63,934 nucleotides of DNA, filler included, from Aduncisulcus paluster (GCA_024181965.1; 12 parts of 12 records of this genome joined end to end with filler, not necessarily neighbours in it); one strand, 5' to 3'. Counted from the whole stretch's first letter, positions 14,461 through 61,734 are shown. Numbers and translations: made by a program. The notes: a model not told the origin generated them from the sequence alone.

Positions 14461-14560
14461 NNNNNNNNNNNNNNNNNNNNNNNNNNNNNNNNNNNNNNNN
14501 NNNNTTAATTAATTAANNNNNNNNNNNNNNNNNNNNNNNNNNNNNNNNNNNNNNNNNNNN

Positions 14561-17066: not shown

Positions 17067-18351
17067 TCGAGTGAATATCAATAACAAACGATGGTCATGA
17101 GCAGCATGATTGTTCTGACTTAAAGTATTCGGCAACCTCAAAGAACGAATAGCATACAATGAAGGCTCTGGTTCTCGTTCAGCACGAAGCTTTGTCTTTG
17201 AGGACGAGGAAGAAGCTGGACGAAAAGAGATAGAAAAAGGAGAGAAACGGTTGGTAAAAACAAAAGATAATAGTAGCAATAACAAAGAAGGGATGATAAG
17301 AGGATGGCTCATATGGACATGATCCATCACAAAGGACAGAGAAGGAAACACGAGAAGAAATACGGGAAGAAAGAAGAGAAGAAACACGAGAAGAAAGACA
17401 AAAAATAGTGGAGATGTTGTCATGCTCGGTGCTGCTTCAGAGTCATCTTGGGAGGATGGGGGTGGTGAAGGAAATGGGGGAGGAGCTTCTGGAGATATTG
17501 GAGATTCTAGACACTCTGGAGCTTCTGGAGATACTATTGACAATGGGTGATAACGAAGGACACAATGCACCAAAATATCAGGAGAACAACATCTCACATG
17601 GTCACAAAAAGGGCAGGATTTCGCATTCTTACATAAACATCCAGAAAGGGAGCGGGAATGGGGATCGAAATCATAGCAATGAGAAACGGAATTCAATGGA
17701 TAAAAATGGTGTGGATATGAACATATCACCTGAGATTCTTTGTCATCAAAAATAAATAAAGGGGAATTCTGAAACGATAAACACGATAGATACAAAGAAT
17801 CTTCTAGAGAACAAAATAATAACTTAGAGCCACAAAGTTCGACGAAACAATTGGACATAAACATTTTAGATATAAAATAATCGGGTTGGTTGGTAGAGAA
17901 AATAGACATTCACGACTATCGGATTTTGAAAAAGGGAAAAAGAGCTTACACGACTAAATCCAGATAAGAATAAACAAATGATCTTGTCAAGTGGGATATA
18001 GAAGAAAATAAAACATACTTTCGATCAAAGGGGTGCCTTGGATGTTTTCAAACTGGCGATAGAGAGGAGCGTCACATTTTGACATTCTTGTAGACTCTTG
18101 GCATGGCAGAAGATCCGATCTGGGGAATAAAAATAAATGAAAATGTATTTATTATCCGCAGAAACAGTAAATAATTTATTAGTTAAGCCATGGATAAAAA
18201 AAAAGATCATCAATCGGTAGGATATCGTTAAGATCACATAAATCCACTGCANNNNNNNNNNNNNNNNNNNNNNNNNNNNNNNNNNNNNNNNNNNNTTAAT
18301 TAATTAANNNNNNNNNNNNNNNNNNNNNNNNNNNNNNNNNNNNNNNNNNNN

Positions 18352-21089: not shown

Positions 21090-21696
21090 TGATTGTTTCA
21101 ATTCTCATGGCTAAAAATAGATCACTTGACATAAATGTTATAATTCTTTTAGAAATATGTATTAAGGATCACAAACTTAACAAATTTATGGAATGTTTTC
21201 GATGTAAATTGTGTTTCAGTCCGTACTACGACTCCATAGGGTAAATTTTAAATCTCAGATTTGTGTTGGCTACAGAAAAGGGGTTATTTTTCTTAAAAAG
21301 TCGGATGAGCCTCTGAAATCGTGAATTAAATAAGACAATAAAATTTTAAAAAATAATATTTTGTTGGTAGGATTGCTTTCAAGGCACTTTTAAACTTTGA
21401 ATGAAAGTTGTTCTCGTGGAGGCTCAGCCTTGATGCCATTGCTCATGAAAATATCATGATATTATTCAACAAATACTGTACTATCTGATAATTTATTCTT
21501 TTTCAACTATTGTGCTGTCAAGAGCCTCTAATAGAGATTGGGTACTCCCTCGTCCAATTATAGAACCAGGAATATAAAATTGATTTATTCAAATTTATAT
21601 GAGTAAATCCACATGATGATATTCTATAAAATGCAAATTAAATTAAATATTTCGGGCTTTTGATAATTTGATTGGGAACTGTGTATTTTGCGAGGT

Positions 21697-24600
21697 ATGA
21701 AGCCCGGAAAATATGTAGGTTGGCTCCTTAATGCCAGCCAAAATGGGATGTTAATTAATTTATACTTTATTAGAGAGATAGGAGGGGAATTCGAGATAAC
21801 TCTAGAATTCTCTCCTTATTTCCTCATTGAAGTGAATAGACCTGATCAAGAAAAGACACTTGAATCTCTACTCAAGCGGGAATTTTCTGGAATTAGTTCC
21901 ATTCGTTCTATAACAAAAGAGTGTCTTGAAGATCCTAGACATATAAGTGGTAGACTTTCACAATATTTGAGGGTTGAATGTTACACCGATAACGATGTCC
22001 GTCAAATTTCTCGGGCCATTATGGTCGCCAAACAAACTTATGAGGCAAGCCAAGATTCTGAGCAAGGAGATCCCTTGGGCAATATTCCTGGGGCCAGTTA
22101 CGGAATGAATGACGATGACTTCGCCATTGACAGCACTTTATTGGCCTCTTTTCTTGGAGACACAACTGAATCCAAATCTTCACATCACAAAGGTTCCAAA
22201 GGTCAACCTGGACATAAAGATGATTCAAAAGACTCTATCATGAAAATAGGTTCCATGGTCAGCGATATTCGTGAATATGATGTTATGTACCTCCAAAGAG
22301 TTATGATTGAACTCAATATCCGTATTGGAAAATGGTATGAAGTCAACGTCACTGCTGAGGGTAATTTTATTACTCCAATCCCCGATATTGAGGCCAGGCC
22401 CAGTCTTAAGGTACTTGCATATGATATCGAAACAACCAAGAAACCACTCAAATTTCCAGATAGTAATTCTGATAGTGTTATGATGATTTCTTATATGACT
22501 TGTGGTCGAGGATATCTCATCGTCAATCGTGCTGTTGTATCGGAAGATATCGATGATTTTGAATATACTCCGAAGAACGAATATGTTGGAAAGTTTAAGG
22601 TCTGGAATTGTCCATCTGAAGAAGCTACCCTGTTGAAATTCCTTGAGCATTGTAGAGAAGTTTCGCCACACATCTATGTTACTTACAATGGAGATTTCTT
22701 CGATTGGCCTTTCATTGAACGACGTTGCCAAATGTATGGAATAGACATGGAACTATATATCGGTGTTTTCCATACCAGTGATCGGAGAGAGATGGACAGG
22801 AGACTTGAGGAAGAGATGCAACTCAAGGCAAGGGCAAAAGGGAAGGAAGAAGAGGATGATGAAGTGGTATTCGGACAGCGAATGAAGAGTAAGGAAAGGT
22901 TGCGAGAAGATGAAGAGAAGAAAGAAGATATCAGAAAAGCTGAAAAGGCATTCAAACCAAAATCATGGAGCAGTTCAGCCCTTTTTTGGCAATGGAAAGA
23001 GTCAGTTAAATCCTTTCATGAGCTTCGTACGACTGTGGGTCTCTCGGAAACTTCGAAACCACCCACAATACCTCCCAAGAGAGNNNNNNNNNNNNNNNNN
23101 NNNGGGAAGGAAGAAGAGGATGATGAAGTGGTATTCGGACAGCGAATGAAGAGTAAGGAAAGGTTGCGAGAAGATGAAGAGAAGAAAGAAGATATCAGAA
23201 AAGCTGAAAAGGCATTCAAACCAAAATCATGGAGCAGTTCAGCCCTTTTTTGGCAATGGAAAGAGTCAGTTAAATCCTTTCATGAGCTTCGTACGACTGT
23301 GGGTCTCTCGGAAACTTCGAAACCACCCACAATACCTCCCAAGAGAGATAATAGCAACGATAAGGATTATTATACGGCATTCAAGGCACCTCACTTGGAT
23401 GCCTTTAAATGGGTGAAGCGAGATTCTTACCTTCCTCAGGGAAGCCAGGGTCTTAAAGCCGTTACTCGTGAGAAACTCAAGTATAATCCACTTGAACTTG
23501 ATCCCGAGGATATGACTCCATTCGCTGCTCTTCATCCCCAAGTTCTGGCCTCATACTCAGTATCAGATGCCGTAGCAACATACTATTTGTACCAGAAATA
23601 TGTACATCCATTCATTTTTGCTCTGTGTACCATTATTCCTCTGACACCTGAATTGGTCCTCAGAAGTGGAAGTGGAACGTTGTGTGAATCCTTGCTCATG
23701 TCTAAAGCTTTCGAGGAAGGTATCGTCTATCCAAATAAGCAGAAAAATCCCCCTCTAACATACCACAAAGGTCGTATGCTCGATACTAGCACTTACATTG
23801 GTGGTAGAGTTGAAGCCCTACGAAGTGGAGTCTTCAGGAACGATTGTGAGTATTTATTTGAATTAGATCCATCGGGATATGATTACCTTATTGATAAGCT
23901 GGACAAAGACCTCATCTTTTCGTTGCGACAAGATTGTGCAGTCGTTGGTGACTCAGACTCTGAAGTTATAGCTCAGGTCAAGAATTACGCAGAAATTCGT
24001 GCAAACTGTATTAAAAAACTTGAATCCCTTCGTGATTGTCCTGTCCAGACCTCCAAACCATACATTTATCATCTTGATGTTGGAGCTATGTACCCATCGA
24101 TTATTCTTACAAATCGTATGCAACCCCCATCTGTGGTTTCCAAAGAACGATGTGAATGTTGTATTTTCAATCCCAAGGGTTGTGTGGAAAATCCCATGTG
24201 TCAGAGGAAAATGATTTGGCGATGGAGGGCAAATGCATTCGCAGCAACACGAGGGGAAGTCAAACAACGAATCGCAGCGATCGAAAGCCGGAATCCAGTA
24301 ATTCCGACCCGAACGAAACGTGAAGTTAATTATTCATTTGCTTCCGAAGATGATAAAGCCGCTTATTTGAAGAAAGAGATCGGACTGTATTGTCGTAAAA
24401 CATACGGTAAAACTCACGAAGAGCTCAATGAATATAGGACAGTTGTCATGTGTCAAAGAGAAACACCTTTCTATGTCAACACTGTGCGATCTTTCAAAGA
24501 TGAACGTTTTAAGTATAAGAAATTGCAGAAAAAAGCCTTCAAAAATATGATGAAATACAAGGCCATCCAAGGACCTGAGTACCTTCGAGCCTGTGACAAC

Positions 24601-27600
24601 TTTGTTCTTTATGAATCGATGCAGCTGGCACATAAGTGTATTCTTAATAGTTTCTATGGGTACGTGATGCGTCAAGGGTCTCGATGGTGGAGTATTGACA
24701 TGGCTGGAGCTGTCACACACACTGGTGCAGAGATCATCAAGAATGCAAGGAAGCTCGTAAGTCGTGTTGGAATTCCTCTAGAACTTGATACTGATGGTAT
24801 ATGGTGTATGCTTCCCTTCACATTCCCAGACGATCTCGAGTTCATCATAGTCGATGAGATGAGCGTGAAAGAGAGGAAAGCCACTGTAAGTTATCCTTGT
24901 GTCATGCTGAATGCTGATGTTGCAGATCACTTTACAAACCCCCAGTATCAGGACATTGAAGATGAAAGACGGAGAACTTTCTCAATGAAAAGCGAGTGCG
25001 GTATCTATTTTGAGGTAGATGGCCCCTATAAAGCTATGGTTCTTCCTTCCGCCAAAGAGGAAGGGAAGAAACTGAAAAAGCGTTACGCTGTTTTTGATCT
25101 TGATGGGAAGTTGAGTGAGCTTAAGGGATTTGAATTGAAAAGAAGAGGAGAACTTGAGATGATTAAGGCTTTTCAAGGTGAGATTTTCAAGTATTTCTTG
25201 CGTGGAGCTAACATCCGAGATGCATACACTGAGGCTGGACGAGTCGCTGATAGATATATTGACATTTTGAAGACAAAAGGAAAAGGAATGGAAGAAAGTG
25301 AGCTCTTGGACCTGATCTGTGAAAGCACAAATATGAGTAAGAGTTTGGAGGAATATGGAGATCGTAAAAGTGCAGCCATCACCACAGCCATCCGATTGAT
25401 GGAACTGCTGAACGATGAAGCACTCAAGGGGCCTGGATTGAGCTGTAAATACATCGTATCTCGTGAACCCGTGGGGACCTCTGTGACTGAGCGTATCGTG
25501 CCCGTCGAAGTCTTCAAAGATCCACGTAGAGATGTCTTTTTAAATCGTTGGTGTGGTATTGAGACCCTCGAAGGCAGGAAAAGTGATGGCAGAAAGAAGA
25601 ATAATGGTAAGAAACATCCTTCCACTCTTTCTATTTCAAGTGGTGCAATCAAAACTTCAGGCTTTTCCTCGACTTCATCTCACCTGACTATTCATGATAT
25701 CCTTGATTGGGATTATTATTTTGAGAGACTCAGTGGAAATATTTTGAAGATCATTGTTCTTCCCGCTGCCTTACAACTCGATGGATGGAATCCTGTTCCC
25801 CGTGTTGAACTTCCTGACTGGTTTAAGAAACAGAAAACCAAGGAAAAAGAGAATATTACATGCATTTCGTCGTATTTCGGGAAGAGAAGGAAAGGTGAGT
25901 CAAAATATCAAGACACTCAAATGGGTGAAGAATTTGGCGAGAAAGCAACAGAAAGCAAGGCGAGTACAAAAGAGACGAAGGATGAAGAAGGTCAGAACGA
26001 TATTATTGAGATCATGGATGGTTTAGACGAAGGAAGGAAGCCTAGTTCAATTTCTTCTTCTCTCCTAATGACATCGTTTAACTATGAAGAGATTAAGGGA
26101 AAATGTCCTCCAAGAGCTGGTGATATCAAATCTTGGTTACAGTGGCAGAAAGGTCTGTGGGATTTGCAGAGAGATGAAAGGATTCGCAAACGTTCAGGCA
26201 ATTCTCTCTCTGGCTCTACTAAGAGTGCTGTACCAATGTCTTTGTCTATTTCGACTGCTGGTAGCTTTTCTAGGCATTTATATATCCTATCAATGACCCC
26301 TTCACATACGCCTAATAGCTTAACTATTTGGTATGTTGAAGGGAACGAGTTTGACGCCTTTGTTGAACAATACTCACACGCCGTGAATGAGTTCACTTCC
26401 CATGCTCTCCATGTTATTCGAGAAACCGAGGGAACCGGTGTGAGGGGAAGGAATGCAAGACAGAAGCTGGCTGAGGAAATTATTGAATACCAAAAAGGTT
26501 ATGATCTCTCTGGACCCGATGGGCAGATCACCTCTGTTCCCCTTTCCTTTATTCTACCTTCAAAATCTCTCCCGCAATTCCCATCACTCAAAAAGATGTC
26601 ATTGTCGATCAACAAGAGACTGATAGTTTGTTCTGATCTCTCCTTTCAGCTTGTTTCTGATGCCCTCGATCATATTCCTCACGTAAAGATCCTCGATGGA
26701 AGTGTCGGAAGAAGGAAGAAGCATAGTGGAGTATGTGCAACAGTGAGTGTCATGGAATGTGGGAAAAGCTGGGTTGTACTGCCAGGAGGACAGAAATGGA
26801 ATACAATCTTGTTCATTGATGTGACACCGAGTCTATTTTTGGAAAAGGTCAACGATATTCTTCATCTCAAGGATGATCCTCGAATTGGAACTGTTCTTGG
26901 GCTTGATGTTGATGATATGGACAGGTACATGACTTCTGTGACCAATTCTGTTCGTGTTGACATGTCAAAGTCAAGGAAGAAAAGGGCTGGAATGGCTACT
27001 TCGATCGATTCTTTCAGCCAGCTTATTCCAACTTCTCAACCTTATCTCGGTGCACCAGACATGTCTATCTCTGCGCTGACTGAGATTTGTTCAACCCTAT
27101 TCCCTGACGCCTTCTCTTTGATGTCCCACATTGTGTCCACTCGTCATCTCTCTTGTTTCCTTCCAACCAGCTTGCTGTGCATTCACATTATGCCTGGAGC
27201 TAATCGAGGAATCATAACATGTCTGATAAGAAACTCGTCTACTCCTTTGCAATTATCATCTATAACCGATTCAACTGATTCAACACCCTCTTTATCTCCT
27301 TATTCCCCATACCGATTACTAGTCGTCTGTATTGGGGCAGTTTCTCAGCGGTTGAGTACAACAGATGTGATGAGGATTATTGGGAAAGGAATGGGCATTG
27401 CTAAAGAATGTGTCTCGACCGTGGGATCTGCTCGTGTTGACACTGCTCTGCGGTTGGCTCGTGAATGGATGGTTGAACTAAGAGGAACGTCGGGATGGGA
27501 CACTGGGATTTGTATGTGTTATTCAAATATTCACTCATCATCGCCTCAATTCGATTCAAAGCAATCCATTATGCTTTCTTCCGGGGAAATTATCAATAAT

Positions 27601-30326
27601 CCAAGAATTCACAATAATCTATTTGCATTGTTCGATTCTTTCCCATGTATTCACCACCAAAGTGGAATTGTGACCAATTCTCCTTTCGAATGGCAAGAAG
27701 AAATTATGCTTCGAGTGCCCTACGTATTTGGTGCCGCACATTTTCATTTGGAAGAAGCGTATGGACTTAGCTCGGTGTCTGGGGTGCCTATTTGTAACAC
27801 AATGTCTCCAGATGTTTCATATTCAAACTCATTTAGATGTCTAGATCTATTCCTTTGTCATCAGATGCATAAGAATCGAATTATCCTATGGAAATCCAAT
27901 ACAGGGCAGTTGTGTTCAGTTCCTACGTTCACCTCTCTCTCTTCTCTTCCGCCTCCTTCAATCTCTCTTCCAACGCTAGCAAGATCTATCTCCTTTTCAC
28001 TCCGCGTCTATGGGCTTGTGACGAATGCGGCTTTGTTCGAAGATGTTACTGCTTTCCTGCCCTCTTTGCTGGTTGAAAAAGAGGAAGAGGAGTGGGATTC
28101 GTCTATTTTAGATGGCAAAGAAGCGAAAAAACATCGTAAAAAACGTGGAGATGCTCTTGGTGGGCGTAGATCTGATTTAAACCGTGCGAGAAGGACAGAA
28201 CGTGATATTTCACGATTGATTACGGCTTCATCATCGTCAACAATGCAGAGTGAAAGTGGACTTCCTTCGGCTCTTCAATCTATTGGATCACAAACTCACA
28301 CGAGGACAAGAGAGGAATTCTTTGACGTCTTTGGGTGTGCCGTTGTCCAGTGTTTGCAGGGTCCTCTACGTCTTGGAATCATTGATAAATTCTTGGTTGT
28401 GGCTAAAGATTCACAGTCACTAGTTTCTTCTTCAACGACTTTCTCAAGTACTACGGATAGCATGTTGAGTTCCATCGATTCTTGGCTGAATGATAGCACT
28501 AAATGTAGGTTTTGTGAAAGTGTTCGAAGGATTAGCCAGCTTTTGAGCCGTAAAACAATGAAACGAATGGTGGACGGGATTACTATGAATATGAAAGCTG
28601 AAGGGGTCAAGGTTGTTCATGCAACGACCAATAAGCTTATTATTCAGACAGACAGGTACCAAAATAGACAAGCCAAAGCTCACATTCAAAGTGTAATGAA
28701 ACGAATTAATAAGGATAAAAAGCTGACGTTTCTACTATTGGAGGAAACCGAGATGATGCAAGCTCTTATCTTCTTGAATCCTATGAATTATATTGGAATT
28801 GTTGACCGTGTTCAGAGGGTTGAAGTCCCAAGGCAACAAAAACCTCAGCCCATGTCCAGACATTCTGTTCTTTCCCATCAGCGTGAGGAAGAAGAAGGAA
28901 TGTATGAAGATCAAATTATTCCGAGCGTGACTGGTGAGATTACCAACTCACAGATCTTACCCAAGATACTTGCTGATAAACTTGTCGAAGCCATTGCTCA
29001 TTTCCTTTATTTCCCAATAACCATGGCAAGAAAGAAAGAGAATCTGAACTCAAGTCAAGCAAGAACGTTGGAATTGAATCTTTTTTCCCTTCTTCCCCAA
29101 CCAAAAACGTCAAAGATGATATTTCCTCTTCTTTCCGTCCAGGGCTACTCGGATCACCGTCTTCGCCGTCTTCTCCCGGCCGTCCTCATCTCGTGTCCAA
29201 CGTGGGAAAAGGAACAAGTGTCGCAGAGTATGAGACAAACCTGTGTAGATATACGAAAAGAGCTCTTAATTCACAACTTCTCGGGGATATCCTGAAGTTT
29301 TTACAGCATTACAAGGATATTACGACTAAATTTAATTCTCCTGATGTTGCTCAATTCCTTGCTCAAAGGGTTGGTTATAAAACTGCTAAACAAACAACAC
29401 CGCTCTCATTCTTCCTTTCATGTTTAGTTTCATTCCTCAAGAAAGATGGCTGGGTTCATATGGATGTTGAACGAATCGGGAAACGTTGGTTCGATGTTCT
29501 TGGAATGTCTCCATTCTCGCCAGCTGCATCTTTCATCTCCCTATATCCCACAATAACGCTTCCCATGGCCTGCCCAAGGTGTGGAAGAGGAAACTTAAAC
29601 CCGTTCCTCGATTTAATCAGAGTTCAAGAGCAGACAGAGACTGCCAATCATATTGATGAAGAAGCTGAATCGACGCCCGATAACGATTATGAGGCCAAGT
29701 CAAGGAAGGAAAAAGAGGAAGAGGAAGAAGGAGAAGAAGAGGAAGAAGGAGAAGAAGAGGAAGAAGGAGAAGAAGAGGAAGAAGGAGAAGAAGAGGAAGG
29801 GGAGAGTATTGAGGATTCTGAAGAGCTTGAGGATGAATTGAGAGATGAAGAACTTGACGGATTTCTTGCTGAAGAGGATCTGGATGAGATTAGAAGACAA
29901 CGAAAGGAAAAGAAAATGTTGAAGGAAAGGAAAAGGAAGAGGGAAGAAGCTGAGAGGAAAAAGAGAATCGAGGCAGAAGAACAAGAAAAACAGCGTGAAA
30001 GAGAGAGAACATGTCCAATAATATGTGCATTGTGTCGAGAGGGAATTATTTCAAGAAGCCATATCGCTCAATGTACAGTGGATAGTGCAAAAAGTGCCTC
30101 TAAATTGTTTTTGTCCCTTGAACCAACTTGTTCACGTTGTGGAATGGGTGCTGGTGGAATCCTTGTGAAACAATGTTCCAGATGCCATGGAAATATCATA
30201 AAACCTTCAAAGGACTCTCTGAAACATCACCTGGAAGCCCTTTTGTTAATATGTAGCAGATTTGGCCTGGAATCATCCGGAATAATTGTTAAGGGGATGC
30301 TGGATGTCTTAAAATATTCAATATAA
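21697..30326 (+). CDS. POLE: DNA polymerase epsilon catalytic subunit; gap duplication at 22840-23347 and a -1 frame change near 29010-29140
   Basis: AYDIETTK (ExoI), TYNGDFFDWPF (ExoII), WVKRDSYLPQGSQGLK, HLDVGAMYP, KCILNSFYGY, ELDTDG; ORF 29193..30326 supplies the C-terminal CysA (CPRC...CALC) and CysB (CSRC...CSRC) motifs. Confidence 0.96.
22840..23347. repeat. Scaffold-gap duplication (~244 bp either side of 20 N)
   Basis: 22840-23083 repeats at 23104-23347. Confidence 0.9.
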
Positions 30327-45122: not shown

Positions 45123-45840
45123 NNNNNNNNNNNNNNNNNNNNNNNNNNNNNNNNNNNNNNNNNNNNTTAATTAATTAANNNNNNNNNNNNNNNNNNNNNN
45201 NNNNNNNNNNNNNNNNNNNNNNCTCTATATATCCCTCCACCAGTGGGCATGGTTTTCCCCGAATCTTTATCCCAAAAGGAGGAGTACTTCAAAAAGTCCA
45301 ACGTTGTACTGAACTGAGGAAGTCTGATCCTGTCGAAAGTTTCAATGACAGATCTGACAATTGTAGGGTTGATAGGTTCAGCAATAGTTAGACAATGTGT
45401 GTCAAGTGCACGAATAAGCCCAGGATTTGACCAGCCGAGAGAATTCAAAAAAAGTTGAAAAAATTAATAAACAAGCGATAAAATTAAAATAACAGTGAAC
45501 TAAAGGTCACAAAACTGGCTGTTAGTCGATATAAAAATTCAAACAACAACAACCTGAGATATCGAGAATAAACACCATGGCATGGAAATGAAAATAAAAC
45601 ATGTTTTTATCATTTACCAGCATTTAACTCGTTTATATGTGTTTTATAAATTTTCCAATCTTATCTATTGAAGGGTTGCTTGTTCAGTCCTCCATTTTTT
45701 CTCGTCGTACAAGCAAATTGTATGTTTACTATATGTCATATCTTTTATTAAATGTATATTAAGAAATATTTTAACCGGATTCATTCATTATTCTGCTTGT
45801 TTTTATTATTTTTTAGATAAGAAATTCTATCTCTATTCAA

Positions 45841-48743
45841 ATGAGTTCATCCACAGATGCTGTTATTCAAACTGTAGAACCTGAGTTTGTTCATGAAGGA
45901 GATGAGAAATGCTGTCCAATTCCTGGAGATGCCCCCAATATTAAGAGTGCAGAGTTTCCAACTATCAAAGCAATAGATGGAACCAAGGAAGAAGGTAAAT
46001 ATGGATACGATCAGAGTTCTGAAGCACAAGAGATGATGAAAGGAGAGGGTAATGGATATTTTACCCATATCTCCATTCCTTTCTCCTCATCTTCCCCAAT
46101 GAAAGGTGCTTATATCTGTCTAAGTAGTTCTTGGACTTCACCTCCATCACACCTTATCTTCACTCTCACATCTTCAAAGGGTGATAAAACATCCAAGAAA
46201 TACGAATTTCCTGGATTTAGACGTAAACATTGGTATTTCCTTCCTGTTGATCTCCCTGATGTTGTTCTGTGTGAGATTACAGGGAAAGGAAAGTGGGAAG
46301 AGTATTTTGATATCGAATCCCTTGTTTTCATTAGTAGAGAAGAAACTCCTGAAGAAATCAAATCTCGTGAAGCCAAAGAGAAACTATGGTCTGAAGCTCC
46401 AATTGTGAAACCAGAGTTTGTTAAGGAAGGAGATTATGATTCTTTTGGTAGAGATTCTAAGGAAGGAGGAAGATATTCTATTCCCATTCCACGAGATGAT
46501 ATAAAGCTTGTAAATTCTTCGTTCTCAATGGTTAATTGCAAGAATGATTCAGTGAGTAAGGAATCTGGGGGGTATGATAGGGGTTCACAAGCACAAAGAA
46601 TGTTAAAAGGGGAAAGTGATGTTTCTTTATCCCATCTTTCCATTCCTTTCCCATCACCTAGTCCAATGAAAGGTGCTTATATCTGTGTGGATGATGATTA
46701 TAGTTCACCCTCTCTTCTCTTCACTTTCACTGATTGTGATGGTAAGAAGACCTTCAAGAAGTATGAATTCACAAGACCTAAACATGATTATGAATGGCAC
46801 TTCCTTCCTATTGATTTGGATAACGTTGTATTGTGTGAGATTGAAGGGAAAGGAATGTGGGATGATAAGAACAGTCGAAGTTTCTACATCTACTCCCTTG
46901 TTTTCCTTCGAGGTGAAGATCTTCCCAGTCTCATGAGTTCATCCACAGATGATGTTATTCAAACTGTGGGACCTGAGTTTATTCATAAAGGATCGGCGGG
47001 TTGCTGTCCAATTCCTCGAGATTTCCCCAATGTTAAGAGTGCAGCATTTCCAACTATCAAAGCAATAGATGGAACCAAGGAAGAAGGAGATGAATACTAC
47101 GATCAGAGTTCTTATGCACAAAAGATGATGAAAGGAGAGTATAATGTTGGACATTTTACCCATATCTCCATTCCTTTCTCTTCATCTTCCTCAATGAAAG
47201 GGGCTTATATTTGTCTAAATGATGAATTTTTACTCCCATCACATCTTATCTTCACTCTCACATCTTCAAAGGGTGATAAAACATCCAAGAAATACCAGTT
47301 TCCTGAATTTTATGGTCGTCATTGGTTTTTCCTTCCTGTTGATCTCCCTGATGTTGTTCTGTGTGAGATTACAGGGAAAGGAAGAAAGACAGAGTGTTTT
47401 AATATCCTCTCCCTTGTTTTCATAAGAGAAGAAACTCCTGAAGAAATCACATCTCGTGAAGCCAGAGAGAAACTATGGTCTGAAACTCCAGTTGTGAAAC
47501 CAGAGTTTGTTAAGGAAGGAGATGTAAAATATGAAGGTAGAGATTCTATTCCCATTCCGCCTGATGATCGAAAGCTTGTAGATCCTTCATTCTCAATGGT
47601 TAATTGCAAGAATGATTCAGTGAGTAAGGAATCTGGGGGGTATGATAGGGGTTCACAAGCACAAAGAATGTTAAAAGGGGAAAGTGATGTTTCTTTATCC
47701 CATCTTTCCATTCCTTTCCCATCACCTAGTCCAATGAAAGGTGCTTATATCTGTGTGGATGATGATTATAGTTCACCCTCTCTTCTCTTCACTTTCACTG
47801 ATTGTGATGGTAAGAAGACCTTCAAGAAGTATGAATTCACAAGACCTAAACATGATTGTGAATGGCACTTCCTTCCTATTGATTTAGATAACGTTGTATT
47901 GTGTGAGATTGAAGGGAAAGGAACGTGGTATTATGGAAAGAATGATAGAAGTTTCTACATCAACTCCCTTGTTTTCCTTCGAGGTGAAGGTATTCCCACC
48001 TCTCATCCTCTTCTTTCTCCTGTTCCTGTTCCTTCCAGTTCCTCCAAGACACCCACATCAACTTTGCCCTTGGCATCAAAACCTGTGAAAGAAGCCGTGA
48101 AAGAAGAAGAAGAAGAAATTGTTATTAAAGGAAATGATAAGGATCCAAGACCAAAAGACACCAAACAGAAGAAACATACGGATAAAAAGAAACATAACCC
48201 CAAGGATGGCAAGCCCAAGTATAACCCCAAGCACGACTCGCTAACCCTGACATCTGCATCCACGCTGACTTCACAGTGCATCATTGGCAGTGGTGGGTTC
48301 GGAGAGGTTCTTCTTGTTCTTATTGATGGCATTCCTTTCCCATGTGTTCTGAAGAAGATGCTTCGGATTGCGGACAAAACTGTTGTGAAAGGGTGTCGGA
48401 AAGAGTTTAAAGTGCAACTCAAGTTGTTTACGAATCCCAAATGTTTCAACCGTATCCCACGTCCTCTGTATATCCTTGACCTGCTTGATTGCGATATGAA
48501 AGGTGTGTATGGCTTCCTGATGGAGTTCTGTGTTGGAGGCAGTGTGAGTGCGTTTGCCAAGCGTTGGTGTGCTGATGGCAAGTATGTGAGTGTTGATGAT
48601 ACTGCTGATGATAGTGAACCCTCAGACTCAGACTCGTCCTCAAGGTCTGGCTCTGGCTCTGAGAGTGCCGATGTTGACACTGCTGTGCCTGACTTTGACG
48701 CCATGACACTGAACCCTGTGAAAGTGTGTTCGTTATGTGTTGG
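45841..48743 (+). CDS. Atypical protein kinase with four tandem ~170-aa N-terminal domains (A-B-A-B), 3'-partial
   Basis: 1092-nt unit repeated from 46933; kinase N-lobe IIGSGGFGEV...VLKKM...FLMEFCVGG from ~48270. Confidence 0.9.
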
Positions 48744-49220: not shown

Positions 49221-49583
49221 ATGGTGGCTGCTGAGCCTATTGATGTGATTGACCATCGGAAAGAAAAAGGTCAATGGCAATTCCTGATCAAATGGAAGGA
49301 ACTGGAAAAAGAGTTTTCCACATGGGAAATGGCTGATGAAGTTCAGCATTATGATACTGTTAAGAGATATATTGAAGACAGAGGATTTATTTTGTAAAAG
49401 AAAATTCCTTGTGTTTCGCTAAGCTTGGGGTCAGCTTCCAGCTCTATGGAGAGGCAGTGTAGGAGGTTACGAAGTCTTTGAGCTTGGGAACCTTCATACG
49501 AAGCTCTTCCTTTTACTCTTATAATAAATTGTACCACACAACTACTTACAAACACGCGATACCACAACCACACAGATCCTACA
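49221..49583 (+). mobile_element. Chromovirus (Ty3/Gypsy) 3' remnant: chromodomain, PPT and 3' LTR
   Basis: 49221..49397 translates to ...IDVIDHRKEKGQWQFLIKWKELEKEFSTWEMADEV...YIEDRGFIL* (below ORF-track cutoff); purine tract GGAGAGGCAG at 49448-49457. Confidence 0.8.
49458..49583 (+). repeat. 126-bp LTR
   Basis: Begins TGTAGGA, ends TCCTACA (7-bp inverted termini), AATAAA at 49523, directly after the PPT. Confidence 0.75.
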
Positions 49584-49605
49584 CATAAGAGGAAATCCAT
49601 AAAAT

Positions 49606-49678
49606 AGGACCCTACCGGACTCGAACCAGTAACCTGCGGCACTGCAAACCGTTGCTCTACCAATTGAGCTAAAGATCC
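49606..49678 (-). tRNA. tRNA-Cys (GCA)
   Basis: GGATCTT-TA-GCTC-AATTGGTA-GAGC-A-ACGGT-TTGCAGT-GCCGC-AGGTT-ACTGG-TTCGAGT-CCGGT-AGGGTCC-T; cloverleaf, U73 discriminator, TTTT terminator downstream. Confidence 0.93.
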
Positions 49679-49991
49679 ACATTTCCAAAATTTCAAATAT
49701 AATATCCATAATATATATTTCTATTTTATCCATATTTCACAAAATTCTATTTAGCTATTACTTCTTTCTTAATAATAAAACCTAAATTTTATTATTTCAA
49801 AATCAAATTTTTTTTGAAACCCTGAGATAGAAGATGAAGTCAAAATTCAATTAAATAATGACAAATGCATTTTCAAATTCACAAAATAGTTACGATACAC
49901 ACACAAACGATCAACTAGTAGCTTGTTCAAACAAACGAAAAATCAAATAAGATTTTCACAAACACCAATACATAAAGAGTGACAAACTAGC

Positions 49992-50578
49992 TCATTTTTG
50001 ATCTTTCTTATCTTCAGATTCCGAAGATGTGGAGTGGAATGAAGATTTCGAAGGGATATTCAGTTTTTCATAACTTGATGAACTTCGACTTGAACTTTCG
50101 GAAATGAGAGAATGAGGTTCTCCATAGGAGATAAGATGACTGCAAATTATATCATCAATAGATGGAAGCTCAAATCCTTCACCAATCTTTGGAAGTAAAT
50201 ATTTAATGGTTTGCACCTTCAAACGAGCCTGATGAACACTCATTCGATAATCTTCATTGATTTGAGTAAGACCTATGAACACTTCATTCAAACACGAATG
50301 AATAGGTTGAAATTTACCTCCTTCAATGGTTAGCAAAGATTTAAACAAAGGCGATCTATGGAGGGGAGGACACATATTATTTTCCATCAATCGCATTATT
50401 ATTTTCATAAGTTCAAAATCATCAGCCTCTCCAATTTGAATTTTTCTAATGACTTCCCTAAATATGGGCAATGAAACATAAGGATGTTCACATATGAACA
50501 AAGAAAGAATGGACATTCCAAGAGAATATCCATCACTCTTTTGAGATTGAAGTCCAGCAAGGAGAGTCTCGTAAGAGA
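49992..50578 (-). pseudogene. 5'-truncated C-lobe of the atypical kinase family
   Basis: SYETLLAGLQSQKSDGYSLG...LLPKIGEGFELPSIDDII aligns with 53844..55136; everything before subdomain VIII is missing. Confidence 0.75.
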
Positions 50579-50580
50579 GC

Positions 50581-50868
50581 TGGAAACTCGGAATCCGCCT
50601 CATATTTCTCCCTCCTTACTGCCCTTTTCTGAACCCAATAGAACATATGTTCTCTACAGTTAAAGCGGCTCTGCAACGTATGACAGCAGATCATGAACTA
50701 CGTTCAGAAGGGCTTGGTGCAATGTTACATTTCGCATTTCTGCAGTATGCTTCTCCTCTTACCGATTTATCAGAAAACTACAAGGAATGTGGAGTATTCT
50801 ATGAAAGTGTTTATGAACGTTCTGAGGAAACAAATGAAGTTATTAGACTAATAAACCGAAAAAAATGA
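50581..50868 (+). mobile_element. Tc1/mariner/IS630 transposase C-terminal fragment
   Basis: In-frame extension of ORF 50647 gives GIRLIFLPPYCPFLNPIEHMFSTVK, the LPPYSPxLNPIE motif carrying the catalytic E. Confidence 0.8.
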
Positions 50869-51165: not shown

Positions 51166-51265
51166 NNNNNNNNNNNNNNNNNNNNNNNNNNNNNNNNNNN
51201 NNNNNNNNNTTAATTAATTAANNNNNNNNNNNNNNNNNNNNNNNNNNNNNNNNNNNNNNNNNNNN

Positions 51266-53725
51266 TGTTGTCACAGCCCCGAGTCTTTCATTATCATTAG
51301 TCAATAATCTTGATAACGCGTCGGCAGCTCCATTTGCCTGTCCCGGAACGTGTCTTATTGTAAACGAATATTCACATAACTCCAAAAACCATCTCGTTAG
51401 TTTTTGATTTGGTGTCTTCTGAAGAAATGTCAGATTTCGATGGTCTGTAAATAGCACAAAATTCCGATACAGCAAATAATGTCGACACTTCCGAATTGTA
51501 AACACAATTCCAAAACATTCCTTTTCGATCACTTTCCATGCACGTTGCTGTGCTGTTAATGTCTTCGAAACGAACTTTATGATACTTCTTCTTCCTTTTG
51601 AATCCTCTTGAATCAGTATCCCTCCAACTCCATAATCCGACGCATCGGTATATAATGCCAAAGAACAGTCATCCTTCGGGAACGTCAGCACTGGAGCTCC
51701 CAGTAATTTCTTCTTTAGCTCCCTGAATGCATTTTCACATTCCTCATTCCAATAGAACTCTCCGGATTTCGTTGTTAACTGTGATAACGGATAAGATGTT
51801 GAACAGTCCCCGATAAAGTCCCTACAGAAATTTATCATTCCCAGAATAGATCTGACGTTTTTCTTGGACTTTGGGGTTCTAATCGCGTTAATCGCTCTAA
51901 TCCGATCAGGATCAACTCTCTTTCCCTCCTTTGATATCTCATATCCCAGGTATGTCAATTTTTTAACTCCCAACATGCATTTTTCGATGTTTATGCGTAG
52001 CTTATACTCTTCAATCCTCTGCATTATGAGTTTCAGGCTTTCTAGGAAGCCTTCCGTCGTCTTCCCGGCAACTAAAATGTCGTCAATGTAAATTAAACAA
52101 TGCTTTCCTATTAAATCAGAAAAAATGTGCTGCATACACATTTGAAAGTGACTAGGGCCATTCTTTAATCCAAATGGAAGGCATTTCCATTGAAACATCC
52201 CCATAGGCGTTTCAAATGCCGTTAATATCCGATCACTCTCTTTTATGGGTACTTGATGAAACCCTTGGCTCAGATCAATCAAGCCAAACACCGTACATCC
52301 TTCCAACCTATCTAACATCATGTCTATATGCGGGAGGGGGAATTTGAAACCAACGGTGATGCTATTAAGAGTTCTATAATCTACGCATAATCTCCACTTG
52401 TTTCCCTTCTTCGGGACCACCACAATCGGCGAAAAAGCAGGGGCTTTGCACTCCTCTACTACGCCATCGTGTTTCAACTTTCGCATTTCATCACCTATGA
52501 ACTCCATATGTTTAGGCGATATTCTTCTTCTTTCTGAAGCCAGAAACTTCTTTCCTTTTTCCAATACAATCTCATATTGGTCAATTATCTTCGGTGCGGA
52601 GTCACACTGACTCATCACCTCCATATAATGATCTGTAATCTCCAAAATCGATCCCTCAATCCCCTCTACTACTTCAGACGAGATTAGATCCTGTGATCCT
52701 GGTAATTCCAAATCATCGGATTCCATTTCATTCTGTTCTATCCCTCGATATGACTGTTCCAACAAATCTAATAATCCCTTTTCTAATATTGTTTTTAGAC
52801 CTAAGATTATCTCGGATCCTTTGGACGGCCATACTAGAAATACTTCCCAGAAGGAAATTGGTTTTCCTAACGTGCCATTAGGTATTGTTATAAATAATAT
52901 CACACGGTGCTCTGACATCATTTCAGAGCCATCCGCAAGTGTAATAGTGCAGACAAATCGTTCTTTCCTCACGCTTCCAGGTATTTCCAGCAGCATATGT
53001 TCAGGGATAAAAGACATAGATGCTCCCGTATCTAAGATTGCTCTGCTACTAATCTTCTCCTTACTTCCCTCAGTATTTCTGATCAATAAAGGTATTGTAA
53101 CGATTGATGTAGTACTTGTCGCAGTTGTAAACAGTACAACTGACGGTGTTACTCTCGATAAATAAGCAGATTTGTCCTTTACTGATCGCTTGGGATAAGG
53201 ACATTTGGATGCATAATGGCCGGTTTTTCCGCAGTTGAAGCAACGAATCTGATCTAATGGTTTCGATTGTCTCTTAGCTTCTTTTGTGAAAGGTTGATGT
53301 GAAGATTCACGACGTTTACCACTGGTACTGGCAGAAAATCGTTTCTTTTCGTCTTCGTAGCCGCGAGCATCATCTTGAGCTTCAGCTACTAAAGCAATTT
53401 GCTCCATTAGTGTTTTTGTAAGCAATTTCATTGAAAGCTCTTGTGAATCCAACGCCACTTCCATTCTTTGTCGGAAGCGGGAATTTTTGATTCCTCGAAG
53501 GAAGTATTTCCCAATAAGTTCATCACTGGGTCTTTCGACTTCAGCAACACCATCCAAAACCTCTCTATACTTGACGACATAAATAGAAGCTTGTTTAAGA
53601 TTCAAAGTAAAGAGTTTTAGCTTCTGGAATTCGTAGACAGCGTCCAGACCCGTGGTAGCACCAAAGTACGCAGAAACTGTTGTCAAAAAGGAAATTTCTC
53701 GTTCTTTGACTTGTTCTTCTGTACA
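51266..53725 (-). mobile_element. Ty3/Gypsy gag-pol (zinc knuckle, protease, RT, RNase H), both ends partial
   Basis: CFNCGKTGHYASKC, ILDTGAS, WRLCVDYRTLN, LPFGLKNGP, YIDDIL, TDASDYGVG, TDHRNL in one frame. Confidence 0.96.
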
Positions 53726-53825
53726 NNNNNNNNNNNNNNNNNNNNNNNNNNNNNNNNNNNNNNNNNNNNTTAATTAATTAANNNNNNNNNNNNNNNNNNN
53801 NNNNNNNNNNNNNNNNNNNNNNNNN

Positions 53826-55136
53826 CATAAACCCAAGCACGACTTGTTATCGCATACCCTGACATCTGCATCCACGCTGACTTCACAGTGCATCATTGGT
53901 AGTGGTGGGTTCGGAGAGGTTCTTCTTGTTCTTATTGATGTTACTGGCATTCCTTTCCCATGTGTTCTGAAGAAGATGCTTCGGATTGCGGATGAAAAGG
54001 TTGTGCAAAAGTGTTGGGAGGAGTTTAAAGTGCAACTCAAGTTGTTTAAGAAGTTCAACAATCCCAAATGTGTCAACCGTATCCCACGTCCTCTGTATAT
54101 CCTTGACCTGCTTGATTCCGATATGAAAGGTGTGTATGGTTTCCTGATGGAGTTCTGTATTGGAGGCAGTGTTACCGACTTTGCTAGGAGTTGGTGTGCT
54201 GGAGGGAAGAAGGTACATTCCATCTCAAGAACTGTGTCAAAATGCAAGGATTCTGAATCTGAATTTGAATCTGAAGACTCAAGCTCTGACTTTGACTCTG
54301 ACTCTGATTCTGATTATGACTCAAGCTCCACTCGCATTGACCCCATGACCCTTGATCCTCTGAGAGTGAGTGCATTGTGTGTTGGAATGATTGAATGTCT
54401 TTCCGAAGTGTTCAAAGCCAAGTCCGACCTTATTCACCGAGACATTAAACCTGACAACTTCCTTATTCGTGTTGATCCGAAAGATGGAGAATGCACCGTT
54501 GTCCTTGGTGATCTTGGTCTTGCTCAAATTCAAGACTCCATCTCTTCTTCCAAATCGTGCAAAAGTTTTGTTGCTCACTCGAGATCTGAAGACAAATCCA
54601 AACCCAAACGCTCCATATGTGGAACCCTTGTGTACAACTCTTGTGAAGCCCTTGAAGGAATGCAAAACCAAAAGAGTGATGCTTACTCACTCGGGCTGAC
54701 CCTGTTCGCAGTCTTCGAGGGTCAGGATCCTTTCCTTCAAATGAAAGTGTTACAAGGAATCGACCGAATTGAATTTGTCACCCGATTGTCAAGGTTAATA
54801 CGGGATGATATGGGTCCAAAACTTTCTGAATCTCGTCTTTTCAAAACTCTAAAAACCATTGAAAGTGGTAAGTTCAACCCTGTTTATTCCTGTCTGAATG
54901 AAATATTCGAAGGATTGACAAAGGTTGACATTGGTAAACGCATGAATGTTCATGAAGCCTGTGTGAAAGTTCAATCCATCAAACATCTTCTTCCAAAGAT
55001 TGGAGAAGGGTGGAAATGTCCATCCATTGACGATATTATTGCACAACAACGAAAGATTTATGGCGGTTCAATTGGCACCATTGGAGATGATCTTAAGGGT
55101 GTTGATTTAAAGAAAGATTGGGATAAGAGTACGTAA
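53826..55136 (+). CDS. Atypical Ser/Thr kinase (paralog of 45841..48743), 5'-partial
   Basis: GSGGFG, VLKKM, HRDIKPDN, DLG in place of DFG, GTLVYNSCE in place of APE. Confidence 0.9.
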   Translation, partial: HKPKHDLLSHTLTSASTLTSQCIIGSGGFGEVLLVLIDVTGIPFPCVLKKMLRIADEKVVQKCWEEFKVQLKLFKKFNNPKCVNRIPRPLYILDLLDSDMKGVYGFLMEFCIGGSVTDFARSWCAGGKKVHSISRTVSKCKDSESEFESEDSSSDFDSDSDSDYDSSSTRIDPMTLDPLRVSALCVGMIECLSEVFKAKSDLIHRDIKPDNFLIRVDPKDGECTVVLGDLGLAQIQDSISSSKSCKSFVAHSRSEDKSKPKRSICGTLVYNSCEALEGMQNQKSDAYSLGLTLFAVFEGQDPFLQMKVLQGIDRIEFVTRLSRLIRDDMGPKLSESRLFKTLKTIESGKFNPVYSCLNEIFEGLTKVDIGKRMNVHEACVKVQSIKHLLPKIGEGWKCPSIDDIIAQQRKIYGGSIGTIGDDLKGVDLKKDWDKST

Positions 55137-55676: not shown

Positions 55677-55905
55677 TCATGGAACTTCCATTGAAGTGTC
55701 ATTGCTTGAATTATTTCCATGGAAGAAAAGATAATCGTTCAGCTGCACTGACATAGTAAAAACAAGGGAGTAGATCCAGAAATATCGACTATTCTTCCTC
55801 TTCCATAACACAACCTTCCTCTCCCCTTCAATTTCAATACAACATTCTCCAAAGTTTGGATCCAAACCAATAGGAAGTACCAATTGGTACTGTACCAATG
55901 AAATT
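55677..55905 (-). pseudogene. Degenerate copy of the kinase-associated repeat domain
   Basis: LPIGLD...EIEGE...KNSRYFWIYSLVF matches the B-domain end LPIDLD...EIEGKG...KNSRSFYIYSLVF. Confidence 0.6.
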
Positions 55906-59025: not shown

Positions 59026-59334
59026 NNNNNNNNNNNNNNNNNNNNNNNNNNNNNNNNNNNNNNNNNNNNTTAATTAATTAANNNNNNNNNNNNNNNNNNN
59101 NNNNNNNNNNNNNNNNNNNNNNNNNATCATCATTTTCACCTGTATTGGCGTTTTTCAATTGGCTTCTTGTTTGTACCATTTTAACAGAAAAATTTTGGCG
59201 TCAATTATACAATAAACTTTAGTTTGATAGGATTTTGATCAAAATGTGGCCAAACTAAACTATAATGCGGTCCAATTTATTAATAAACAGATCTCGAGCG
59301 AACCAATCTATTTTTAGAATGTCCCTGAGAATGG

Positions 59335-61268
59335 TCACCACACTTTCGAGGAGATTAAACGAGAGTTGGTCAAAGGTCCAGTTTTGCATCATGTTGATTA
59401 TTCGTTGCCATTCTTGCTGAGAACAGATGCGAGTGGTTATGGAGTGGGAGGTGTCCTACTTCAGATTGATCATGAAGGAAGGGAGAGAACAGTTCGTTAC
59501 ATTGCCAAAACTTTCACAGAAGCGGAAAGGAAATGGTCGACCAATGAAAAGGAGTGCTATGCCATTAGGTATTGTCTGGAGAAAATCAAAGATACCTGTT
59601 TTGGTCTTCCGATTAGAATTCAAACGGATCACCGCAACCTACAATTCATGAAAAAGAGTGTCACCCCTAAGATCGCGAGATGGTATTTATTTATGCAACA
59701 GTTCGACTATTCTATCGAACATATTGCTGGAGCCAACAATGAAGTTGCAGATGCATTGAGTAGGGTGGGACACGTCAGGAGGATTGAGATTACGGACGAG
59801 AGAGTCGCTGAAGTTATTGAAGCTCAAAAAGATCTCTCTCAACATATTAGGAAGAAGTCTGAGCTGGAAGAAGGTATTTTGGTGGATGAAGAAGGTTTGA
59901 TACCAATACCAGATGATAAGATTGAATTGAAAGGCAAGATTATTCGAGATCACCACAATTCAGTTGTAGGTCATGGAGGTCTCGCAGCAACTTGCTATAA
60001 AATCAAATCAACGGGCTATACCTGGCCCTCAATGTATGCAGATGTGAAACAACACATCAAAGTTTGTGCTATTTGTCAGAAAGTGAAGGAAAAGAAAATT
60101 CCACCGGCCCCTGTGTTATCCATAACTATGGAGACACCATTTCACACGGTATTTGTGGATACTCTAACGGTTTCGGCGGATGAGGAGAAAGAAAAGTATG
60201 TTATTGTGATGTTAGACAGTTTCACTCGTTGGTGTGAACTCATTCCTGTCGAAAGTCTTGAAAGAATTCCTGCCTGTGATGCGATGCTCCCATTTTTGGC
60301 AAGACACGGTATACCGAAAGTTATTCACACTGATGGTGGATCTCAGTTTGCTAATTACCTAGCAGATCATTTATGGGACACTCTAGGTGTCAAGCATCAC
60401 ATATCGATTGCACACCATCCAACTGGTAATGGTGCAGTGGAGAGGGTAAACAAAGAGATAAAGAAGCATCTTCGTGGACTATTTTTGGATTTGATGCTGG
60501 AAAACAAGTGGACTGTTTACGTACCGGTGGTACAGAGCATCATTAACAATACATTCCACAAGTCCATTGGATGCACCCCATTTGAGATGCTGAGAGGAAT
60601 TAGACCCTCAAGAGTTTTACAGGGTCGATTTTCCAAAGAATGTGATAAAAGTGAAGCAGAAATGCCTGCGAGCAGAAAATCAGAGATAGATTACGTCAGG
60701 GAGTTGGTGAACAAACTAGAGCAACTCCATAGACGTTCTGTCATAATCCAACGCAGAATTATTGAAAAAAGGGAAGGGGATGAGCCTGAGGTTGCTATTG
60801 GCTCATATGTTCTGAAAAAGAGAGTTATTCCCGAAGGAAAACTGTATGTCGACTTGATGGGACCATATGTGGTCGTAGAGAAGCTTGGAGATAGATTGTA
60901 TCTATTAAGAAGCATTGTAAACATTGAAGAGGAAGAAAAAGTGCATGTCAATGACATTATGCCTTTCCAAGAAGATCCGACGAGATCGCTCGAGGAGATG
61001 AGAGCGTTAGCGGCACGTGATTATGGCTGGACACTCATCTCGGAGATTTTGGAGCATAAACGGGAACAAGGAAAGCTATTCCTTAAGGTAAGATGGAAAG
61101 GATGGTCAAAAACAAGCGAAACGTGGCAAGCCTACGAAGAACTGAAAGGACTCGCCAAGGTTAAGGAGTACATTAAGAAAAAACGTCTCCGGAAGTTATG
61201 ATTTTTATTGTAGCAGGATGGTCCTGCATGAAAAAAGGGAAGTGTAAGGATTCCAAGAAACAATAAAT
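59335..61268 (+). mobile_element. Chromovirus Ty3/Gypsy 3' half: RNase H, integrase, chromodomain, PPT and start of LTR
   Basis: TDASGYGVG, HHCC (HNSVVGH...CAIC), D..TDGG..E core, GPY motif, ILEHK...LKVRWKGWSKTSETW; PPT GAAAAAAGGGAAG at 61230-61242 followed by TGTAAGG. Confidence 0.93.
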
Positions 61269-61634
61269 TTAGCACAGTCTCACATTAACCAACGGACGAT
61301 CAGCTGAGACAGAGAACATAGCCTTCAGGGCTTGGCCACCACGACGATAGGGACAATCACGTTTGAAATGTCCGAGCTTACCACAATTAAAGCATTTCAC
61401 CTTACTGAGATCCCTCTTGGTTACTGCAGACTGGTGCTTTACCGGGGAATGTTTTTGGAGGGGAGTAGAAGTAGAGCGGCGTTTCTCCGGTTCCAAGTAC
61501 CTCTTAAATTCATCAATCACATCACTTACAATCGCTTGCTGCTCGAAAACCATCGCAGTCATCTCTGATATGGTAGGGGTGGGTTTCCCATCCAAGGCGG
61601 ATTCACAACGAACACGAAAACTATTGACGGTGAT
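61269..61634 (-). mobile_element. Ty3/Gypsy gag fragment on the opposite strand
   Basis: CFNCGKLGHFKRDC knuckle with context similar to the gag at 53200-53480; breaks off before the protease active site. Confidence 0.85.
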
Positions 61635-61734
61635 NNNNNNNNNNNNNNNNNNNNNNNNNNNNNNNNNNNNNNNNNNNNTTAATTAATTAANNNNNNNNNN
61701 NNNNNNNNNNNNNNNNNNNNNNNNNNNNNNNNNN

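Follow-up and report, generated by a model that had tools for sequence, protein, structure and literature searches.

Diversified jelly-roll domain pairs, in part leading to a kinase, form a large family in Aduncisulcus paluster

The partial gene ADUPG1_010369 of Aduncisulcus paluster is best read as one member of a species-specific, germline-encoded set of putative intracellular binding proteins. The scaffold unit is a pair of jelly-roll domains, A and B, with a conserved framework and variable loops diversified toward Tyr, Asp, Glu, Asn, Arg and Trp. Units occur alone or in arrays of up to about 12 domains ahead of a conserved, intact-looking Ser/Thr kinase carried on a long flexible linker. 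On balance it is probable that the family serves intracellular recognition, has a kinase output and is under arms-race selection, a reading for which we infer the ligand, the clustering of the loops on one face and the immune role. A. paluster is a free-living fornicate with a short-read assembly of N50 4.6 kb (PMC9933649). The genome announcement does not mention the family, and no report of it was found in titles and abstract openings on A. paluster, fornicate kinase expansions and protist discoidin receptor kinases, in a search outside which most subscription journals lay.

Gene layout and domain fold

The window analysed here, 63,934 nucleotides in all, is a string of contigs joined with N-spacers, in which the contig carrying the gene (G000:C11552) spans 45223-48743 (3521 nt). 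A single open frame on the plus strand (45841-48743) runs from an ATG at 45841 to the contig spacer at 48744, where the contig end truncates it and its 3' part is absent; in a protein search, the first 362 residues are 100% identical to ADUPG1_010369. The preliminary description had recognised four homologous domains sharing a set of motifs; all of these motifs were found, and the domains are of two types in the order A1-B1-A2-B2. Domain A1, with a short N-terminal lead (45841-46338), is joined to B1 (46399-46914) by a conserved linker helix of low entropy (46339-46398; helix 170-185 in the model). A2 (46933-47430) restarts at 46933 with MSSSTD, as had been described, and is followed by B2 (47485-47985), by a linker of about 85 residues whose low-complexity sequence is rich in Ser, Pro, Lys and Glu (47986-48243) and by a kinase N-lobe with a Ser/Asp-rich insert (48244-48743).

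Like domain copies have 85-94% DNA identity over ungapped blocks, and their differences are bunched in short patches with indels. The earlier view that like copies are near-identical outside such patches holds for the B domains and for the bunching itself, but not for A1 and A2, which are about 78% identical as proteins. B1 and B2 have an identical tract of 268 nt (46522-46789 and 47590-47857). A piece of the DNA run inside this tract has a depth of 2651, against 1292 and 1270 for the adjoining B1- and B2-specific pieces, the pattern expected of two genuine copies and not of a collapsed one. The B1-A2 junction is bridged by no listed piece; the same junction type is present at locus L084.

Elsewhere in the window, Ty3/gypsy-type frames were read from the translation at 51218-53773 (-), 59318-61201 (-), 61269-61682 (-) and 49222-49400 (+), with a zinc knuckle, protease, RT, integrase and chromodomain-like end. 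Two minus-strand frames (15126-17909 and 14513-15280) encode internalin/BspA-like LRR proteins with a hydrophobic lead, a further expanded surface family, and a tRNA-like sequence was seen by eye at 49590-49680 (-). Gaps of 20 N lie at 2272, 23084, 37123, 41079 and 56457; several have duplicated sequence on both sides, an assembly artefact exemplified by a DNA polymerase epsilon-like frame (21667-29295).

What are the domains? The preliminary description could not name them. At the level of fold this can be done: comparison of the predicted models with known structures identifies both A and B as galactose-binding-like jelly rolls. AlphaFold2 gave the A1-B1 pair a pLDDT of 93.2 and a pTM of 0.88 (B1, pLDDT 94.4), and many CBM32, discoidin and DOC members match at Z 11-12.8 and rmsd 2.5-3.4 over 116-151 residues. 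The best are the CBM32 of ZmpB (Z 12.8, rmsd 2.9, 135 aligned; Z 14.0 in tandem) and yeast APC10 (Z 11.9, rmsd 3.4, 151 aligned), followed by the DOC domain of HECTD3 (11.7), muskelin discoidin (11.6) and IFT25 (11.4), all effectively tied; fucolectins score Z 9.5-10.2. A viral structure library returned generic jelly-roll matches alone (best E 2e-4), and a homodimer prediction of the A-B unit scored 0.00, which speaks neither for nor against dimers. By sequence, none of 62 diverse domains matched Pfam at E<=1, DOC/APC10 (PF03256) included, and the domain profile, run against solved structures, gave no match. FlaA, F5-8 and CBM clusters in a feature-based atlas (0.79-0.87) were kept as a lead only.

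The DOC domain (APC10/Doc1, HECTD3, HERC2, CUL7) is likewise an intracellular jelly roll with loop-based protein recognition; in HECTD3 the substrate is recruited by exposed, non-conserved loop residues, as outlined in PMC13018541. APC10 also gives the longest structural overlap with the family domain, N-terminal arm included (151 of 172 residues). DOC differs in its output, an E3 ligase rather than a kinase, and there is no sequence-level link. Membership of DOC/APC10 was rejected at the sequence level, with 0 of 62 domains matching PF03256 and a profile-profile probability of 1.5%, against 1.6% for the reversed control. The motifs of the genome's own DOC genes (YWQS; D.SY.P; DT.VR) occur in 0, 1 and 0 of 360 family domains. 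These true DOC genes, of which there are 11 over the Pfam cut-off, form a low-copy set of their own; the family profile reaches two of them in register, with 7.5 bits. The set includes a small expansion (L140, L141, L143, L197 and L201; G000:C12589, C10847/C50, C12724, C481 and C12530), in which L141 and L142 are the same gene on two contigs; several true DOC genes continue, by eye, into a BTB-like region.

CBM32 and F5-8 type C (discoidin) modules, although top in structural score, differ in sequence (4-14% identity), in tandem arrangement (rmsd 11.9) and in belonging to bacterial extracellular enzymes. The cation motif of F-type lectins and CBM32, h-D-G after the helix, is replaced in the family: KG stands there in 280 of 332 domains, and DG is outside the ten commonest. 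The fucose motif of F-type lectins, HX24RXDX4(R/K) as defined in PMC5712786, was found in 7 of 360 domains with a relaxed pattern and no register check.

These replacements bear on an outward-facing role, in which the proteins would leave the cell by non-classical export as lectin-like binders recognising prey bacteria or as offensive effectors acting on competitors. Such a role would agree with the presence of extracellular CBM32 and F-lectins among the best fold matches and with aromatic-rich variable sites, which suit sugar binding, while the replaced cation motif, the rarity of the fucose motif and the kinase's requirement for ATP speak against it. In its favour, too, a minor upstream exon could supply a 30-residue lead; the NCBI model has an extra upstream exon, whose frame hits a stop when the observed acceptor is used. 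By hydropathy, no transmembrane stretch lies between the domains and the kinase, again contrary to an outward-facing role: the highest 19-residue value, 1.76, is in the kinase N-lobe. This bears out the preliminary description's claim of no transmembrane segment; the protein probably also lacks a signal peptide, as stated there. Among the relatives, 20 of 188 start with MG (Gly frequency 5%) and 3 of 214 have CaaX-like C-termini; ADUPG1_010369 has neither. The lipid-anchor-like ends of some older members lend weak support to a cytosolic location, and we regard the outward-facing role as very unlikely.

Family size, architectures and the kinase

The preliminary description had proposed a large expansion from family pieces on other contigs, and both the pieces and the expansion are borne out. 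Three separate pieces lie in the window: a near-complete kinase domain of the same family with its 5' end cut (53826-55136, +), a kinase C-lobe fragment 46% identical to it (49995-50615, -) and a C-terminal fragment of a B-type domain (55758-55877, -; tblastn E 3.6e-4). The genome holds at least 664 copies of a 23-base framework pattern at no more than two mismatches (322 + 342; reversed control 0), a total that may include alleles assembled apart. Protein searches with the family domains returned 1388 and 1504 candidates; 150 of each were scored, and these matched at 68-91%. With residues 1-362, 114 proteins among 2240 candidates were retrieved, all 114 of them named A. paluster. A profile of the 62 domains, run against 1.84 billion representatives, gave 176 matches at E<=0.001; among the 150 listed, 50 were already named and 100 were new. 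Twenty of these 100 were looked up, including ten of the weakest listed, and all are from A. paluster, three of them from a transcriptome-derived set.

Architectures vary. A sample of 116 distinct A-B units (out of 138 fetched loci) divides by rough tail label into 58 with a stand-alone tail, 41 leading toward the linker and kinase and 17 others. The term sensor-kinase repertoire, used in the preliminary description, therefore fits the units that lead to a kinase but not the family as a whole, about half of the sampled units being kinase-less. In a sample of 69 distinct gene starts biased toward intact best matches, 18 run in frame to a kinase, 28 are stand-alone A-B, 3 run off the locus end, 9 have a whole A-B followed by an early stop, 8 are broken inside A-B and 3 are unscorable. 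That 8 are broken and 9 more stop early despite this bias counts against a recognition repertoire. Annotated relatives carry 1 to 8 domains each, and one representative carries 12; some copies may be alleles or chimeras in this fragmented short-read assembly of one strain. Jelly-roll domains are also annotated together with AAA ATPase, LRR, nitroreductase, DRG GTPase, importin-beta and MSP domains (P0010, P0046, P0079, P0110, P0115, P0075), combinations that could be genuine fusions or could come from the merging of gene models.

The gene had been described as encoding a kinase. Kinase sequence is indeed there, with the Gly loop (GSGGFG), beta3 Lys (VLKK) and alphaC Glu (KEF) of a Ser/Thr protein kinase, but only the N-lobe lies on this contig. 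The contig's final 311 nt are identical to G000:C12386, where the frame continues into HRDVKPDN; the kinase of ADUPG1_010369 is thus probably intact, its own catalytic loop lying beyond the contig end. The window's kinase paralogue matches Pfam Pkinase (E 6e-16). Of 102 catalytic loops, 100 retain HRD; the DFG position reads DLG in 73 and DFG in 1, and the N-lobe has a dN/dS of 0.23 and no variable site among 88 (13 sequences). All 104 long relatives of the kinase are from A. paluster, making it species-specific at the search depth reached. Other long proteins carry the same kinase at their N-terminus, and it also occurs in tandem and with LRR or PARG domains, a spread that counts against a dedicated output for the jelly-roll units. 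Two- and three-kinase tandem proteins (P0116, P0117, P0130, P0097, P0118, P0126) have in some cases jelly-roll domains between the kinases, and other proteins (P0129, P0127, P0120, P0124, P0136, P0141) fuse the kinase to a PARG macrodomain, LRRs or long Pfam-less regions.

Another fornicate offers a parallel. As described in PMC3218828, the Giardia Nek kinases with TALM-ankyrin repeats and the kinase-less Protein 21.1 combine a fornicate-specific kinase expansion, variable repeat arrays and a kinase-less sister family. Might the A. paluster domains likewise direct kinases to a wide range of host substrates or sites, the role proposed for the Giardia proteins? The use of DOC-fold domains as substrate adaptors (PMC13018541, in outline) and the lipid-anchor-like ends of older, divergent members would agree with such endogenous signalling. 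In young copies, however, the dN/dS of 1.8-2.6 and the tract shuffling described below would be unexpected with stable host partners, and we consider this explanation unlikely. The Giardia Neks, as outlined in that account, also differ in having ankyrin repeats and an N-terminal, mostly catalytically dead kinase; in A. paluster the kinase is C-terminal and its HRD almost always kept, its clade has no non-Aduncisulcus match, and positive selection is seen.

Loop variation, exchange between copies and genomic spread

In the galactose-binding-like fold the termini exit at the bottom and the top loops ring the ligand pocket, as outlined in PMC5712786. The strand order of the model, with alternate connections at opposite ends of the sandwich, divides the loops into top and bottom classes. 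Across the 116 A-B units, 30 of the 83 sites in top loops and the N-arm have an entropy exceeding 2 bits, as do 8 of 37 before or on the helix and 2 of the 185 remaining sites, but none of the 30 in bottom turns, the top-class borders having been set after the entropy table was seen and placement following strand topology rather than 3D measurement. About 20 positions per domain are diversified, at loops of one sandwich end and around the preceding helix, and we infer that they cluster on one face in 3D. The variable sites are rich in Tyr (13.1% against 2.7% in the framework) as well as Asp, Glu, Asn, Arg and Trp, and the variable-site string is unique in 115 of 116 units. Locus L020 carries a 17-residue insertion in one top loop, after the B-domain helix, that looks captured or duplicated.

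Pairwise dN/dS is 1.22 for the top class, 1.05 before the helix, 0.41 for the bottom and 0.39 for the rest. In a split-half comparison of the 116 units, 41 sites chosen on one random half gave 1.82 when measured on the other, against 0.46 elsewhere; the pairs are non-independent, the halves share ancestry and the values carry no formal P value. Single-base codon differences alone give 2.6 at variable and 0.38 at other sites. Within the gene, units 1 and 2 differ by 42 non-synonymous and 4 synonymous changes in 40 hypervariable codons and by 31 and 18 in the other 294. The whole top class reaches just 1.22, which counts against recognition under an arms race. The variation is nonetheless focused on loops and above neutral. 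None of the outcomes that the preliminary description had named as telling against it, namely even or neutral variation, a known low-copy family or mostly unexpressed copies, was found.

Does a mutator generate this diversity? Variation by consensus base is 0.34 for A, 0.35 for T, 0.41 for C and 0.42 for G. DGR-type mutagenesis was rejected on the lack of template-adenine restriction (A 0.34, G 0.42) and on the indels in the loops. Targeted hypermutation found no support: four-fold-site diversity is 0.19 beside variable codons against 0.12-0.15 farther off, at few sites. With no base bias and little nearby four-fold rise, selection on ordinary mutations is indicated rather than a mutator.

The copies are mosaics, reshuffled by short-tract exchange. 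The correlation between framework distances of A and of B is 0.15; odd and even codons give 0.55, and A and B in 30 simulations without recombination 0.64-0.81. Linkage drops with distance by -0.069, more steeply than in any simulation (-0.021 to 0.022). This decoupling and linkage drop support reshuffling between copies, the subject of the gene-conversion tests that the preliminary description had proposed. Four-gamete incompatibility was discarded as a sign of recombination, being 0.76 observed and 0.79 in simulations without it. Identical tracts of 240-555 nt connect units 5-10% apart. A2 has a 263-nt tract identical to the gene at L020, on another contig (C10158), which also matches the 254 nt upstream of unit 1; these long common tracts may be assembly chimerism. 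The idea that L020 is an allele of ADUPG1_010369 was not supported, its kinase being of a different subtype.

The region upstream of the gene that is common to the family (45554-45840, +) holds a 97-nt GT..AG intron ahead of the main ATG (45720-45816, +), kept in the genomic copies. The joint 45719-45817 is present in run X2, RNA-type by our guess as no run is recorded as RNA, and absent from the DNA run (X1); cover of the coding part is far above that of the upstream part. Spliced transcripts are thus shown for the family rather than for the ADUPG1_010369 copy. Among the 69 starts, shared 5' DNA varies from about 50 to over 1400 nt, with no fixed element end. The kept intron and the variable length of upstream DNA point to DNA-level duplication without fixed ends, and on this 5' side a defined transposon or retrocopy was rejected.

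The same observations weigh on passenger amplification, the idea that the family rides on duplication-prone or selfish DNA and that its loops are merely unconstrained. Over 1 kb of upstream non-coding DNA accompanies some copies, broken copies occur, and neighbouring contigs of the window carry Ty3/gypsy-type frames. The scattered 5' boundaries and the retained intron, which excludes retrocopies, do not fit, however, and neither do purifying selection on the framework (0.39-0.46) and kinase and ratios above 1 at variable sites. Passenger amplification is accordingly the most improbable of the explanations we weighed.

The family cassette begins abruptly at 45554. The non-family flank (45223-45553, +) is repeated exactly at one other place in the assembly, on G000:C11657 (L204/L205), where it runs into an unrelated surface-type gene of Cys-rich EGF-like/LRR character. 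At 45553 a DNA contig of depth 2573 stops, while gene-specific pieces have about 1290, a 2:1 ratio across the junction. Such a pattern would arise if one homologue had recently gained an insertion or been rearranged, or if the flank were duplicated; the other insertion junction was not found, and the right-hand side of the 'empty site' is single in the assembly.

The filled/empty-like site and half-depth DNA would fit an allelic difference, as would be met in self/non-self recognition among conspecific cells (allorecognition, mating-type-like), where polymorphic domains read polymorphic host proteins. The fungal het-d/het-e genes of Podospora, members of the HNWD family, are the model. According to the description in PMC1805685 these are intracellular receptors with repeat exchange within and between genes and a positively selected interaction surface, and the same concerted evolution and positive selection are found in A. 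paluster, with the surface assigned by topology. HNWD proteins, as described there, combine a WD40 propeller with NACHT and HET in 10 genes, whereas the A. paluster family has jelly-roll pairs, a kinase or no output, and hundreds of paralogues in one strain, a number that speaks against allorecognition. No NACHT/NB-ARC NTPase was found in the ADUPG1_010369 frame or in the precomputed Pfam lists of the 114 relatives. We judge allorecognition to be improbable.

Likeness to known systems and biological meaning

Two further systems invite comparison. F-type lectins, and in particular Pacific oyster bindin as described in PMC5712786, are alike in fold class, in tandem domains and in CDR-like top loops whose diversity comes from positive selection and recombination; bindin is secreted, has the cation and fucose motifs and comes from few spliced genes, in contrast to the large, kinase-fused family described here, which lacks both motifs and probably a secretion signal. 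Cereal tandem kinase proteins with integrated sensors, in the outline drawn on here, likewise join an intracellular sensor domain to a kinase with no transmembrane segment, but have unrelated sensors (HMA and others), few loci and proven function, where function in A. paluster is putative. The jelly-roll kinase family resembles HNWD, bindin and Nek/Protein 21.1 and is a member of none.

The phrase 'diversifying intracellular sensor-kinase repertoire, possibly immune-like' in the preliminary description is upheld as to expansion, loop diversification, shuffling, family transcription and a binding-type fold; the kinase belongs to part of the family. How might an intracellular recognition repertoire of this kind work? 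The variable loops would together make a single surface that binds foreign molecules which change rapidly and enter the cytosol, with proteins of viruses, of endobiotic or prey-derived bacteria or of mobile elements as likelier targets than a fixed sugar. Arrays of domains could provide avidity or several specificities. Binding would deliver the tethered kinase to the target, or cluster kinases via the long linker, and a defence response would start. Kinase-less units may bind or sequester targets and act as sequence donors.

A bolder version, doubtful as it stands, sees the jelly rolls as the scaffold of an antibody-like library inside the cell. The paratope loops of several hundred two-domain binders would be continually recombined by short gene conversions, the loops would be swapped onto a common kinase, and new receptors would insert at new sites quickly enough for homologues, or the cells of a single culture, to differ in them. 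If true, it would mean that a metamonad has an immune system of the anticipatory type, with a scaffold and an output undescribed for any intracellular receptor family.

Immune-type recognition is barely characterised in free-living protists, and metamonads are distant from animals, plants and fungi. Arms-race signatures such as these offer testable receptors and would point to unknown intracellular enemies of anaerobic flagellates. The A-B unit is, in addition, a putative natural binding scaffold, stable in the cytosol and with its variable loops mapped, and may serve as a comparator for the unexplained Nek/Protein 21.1 expansion of Giardia.
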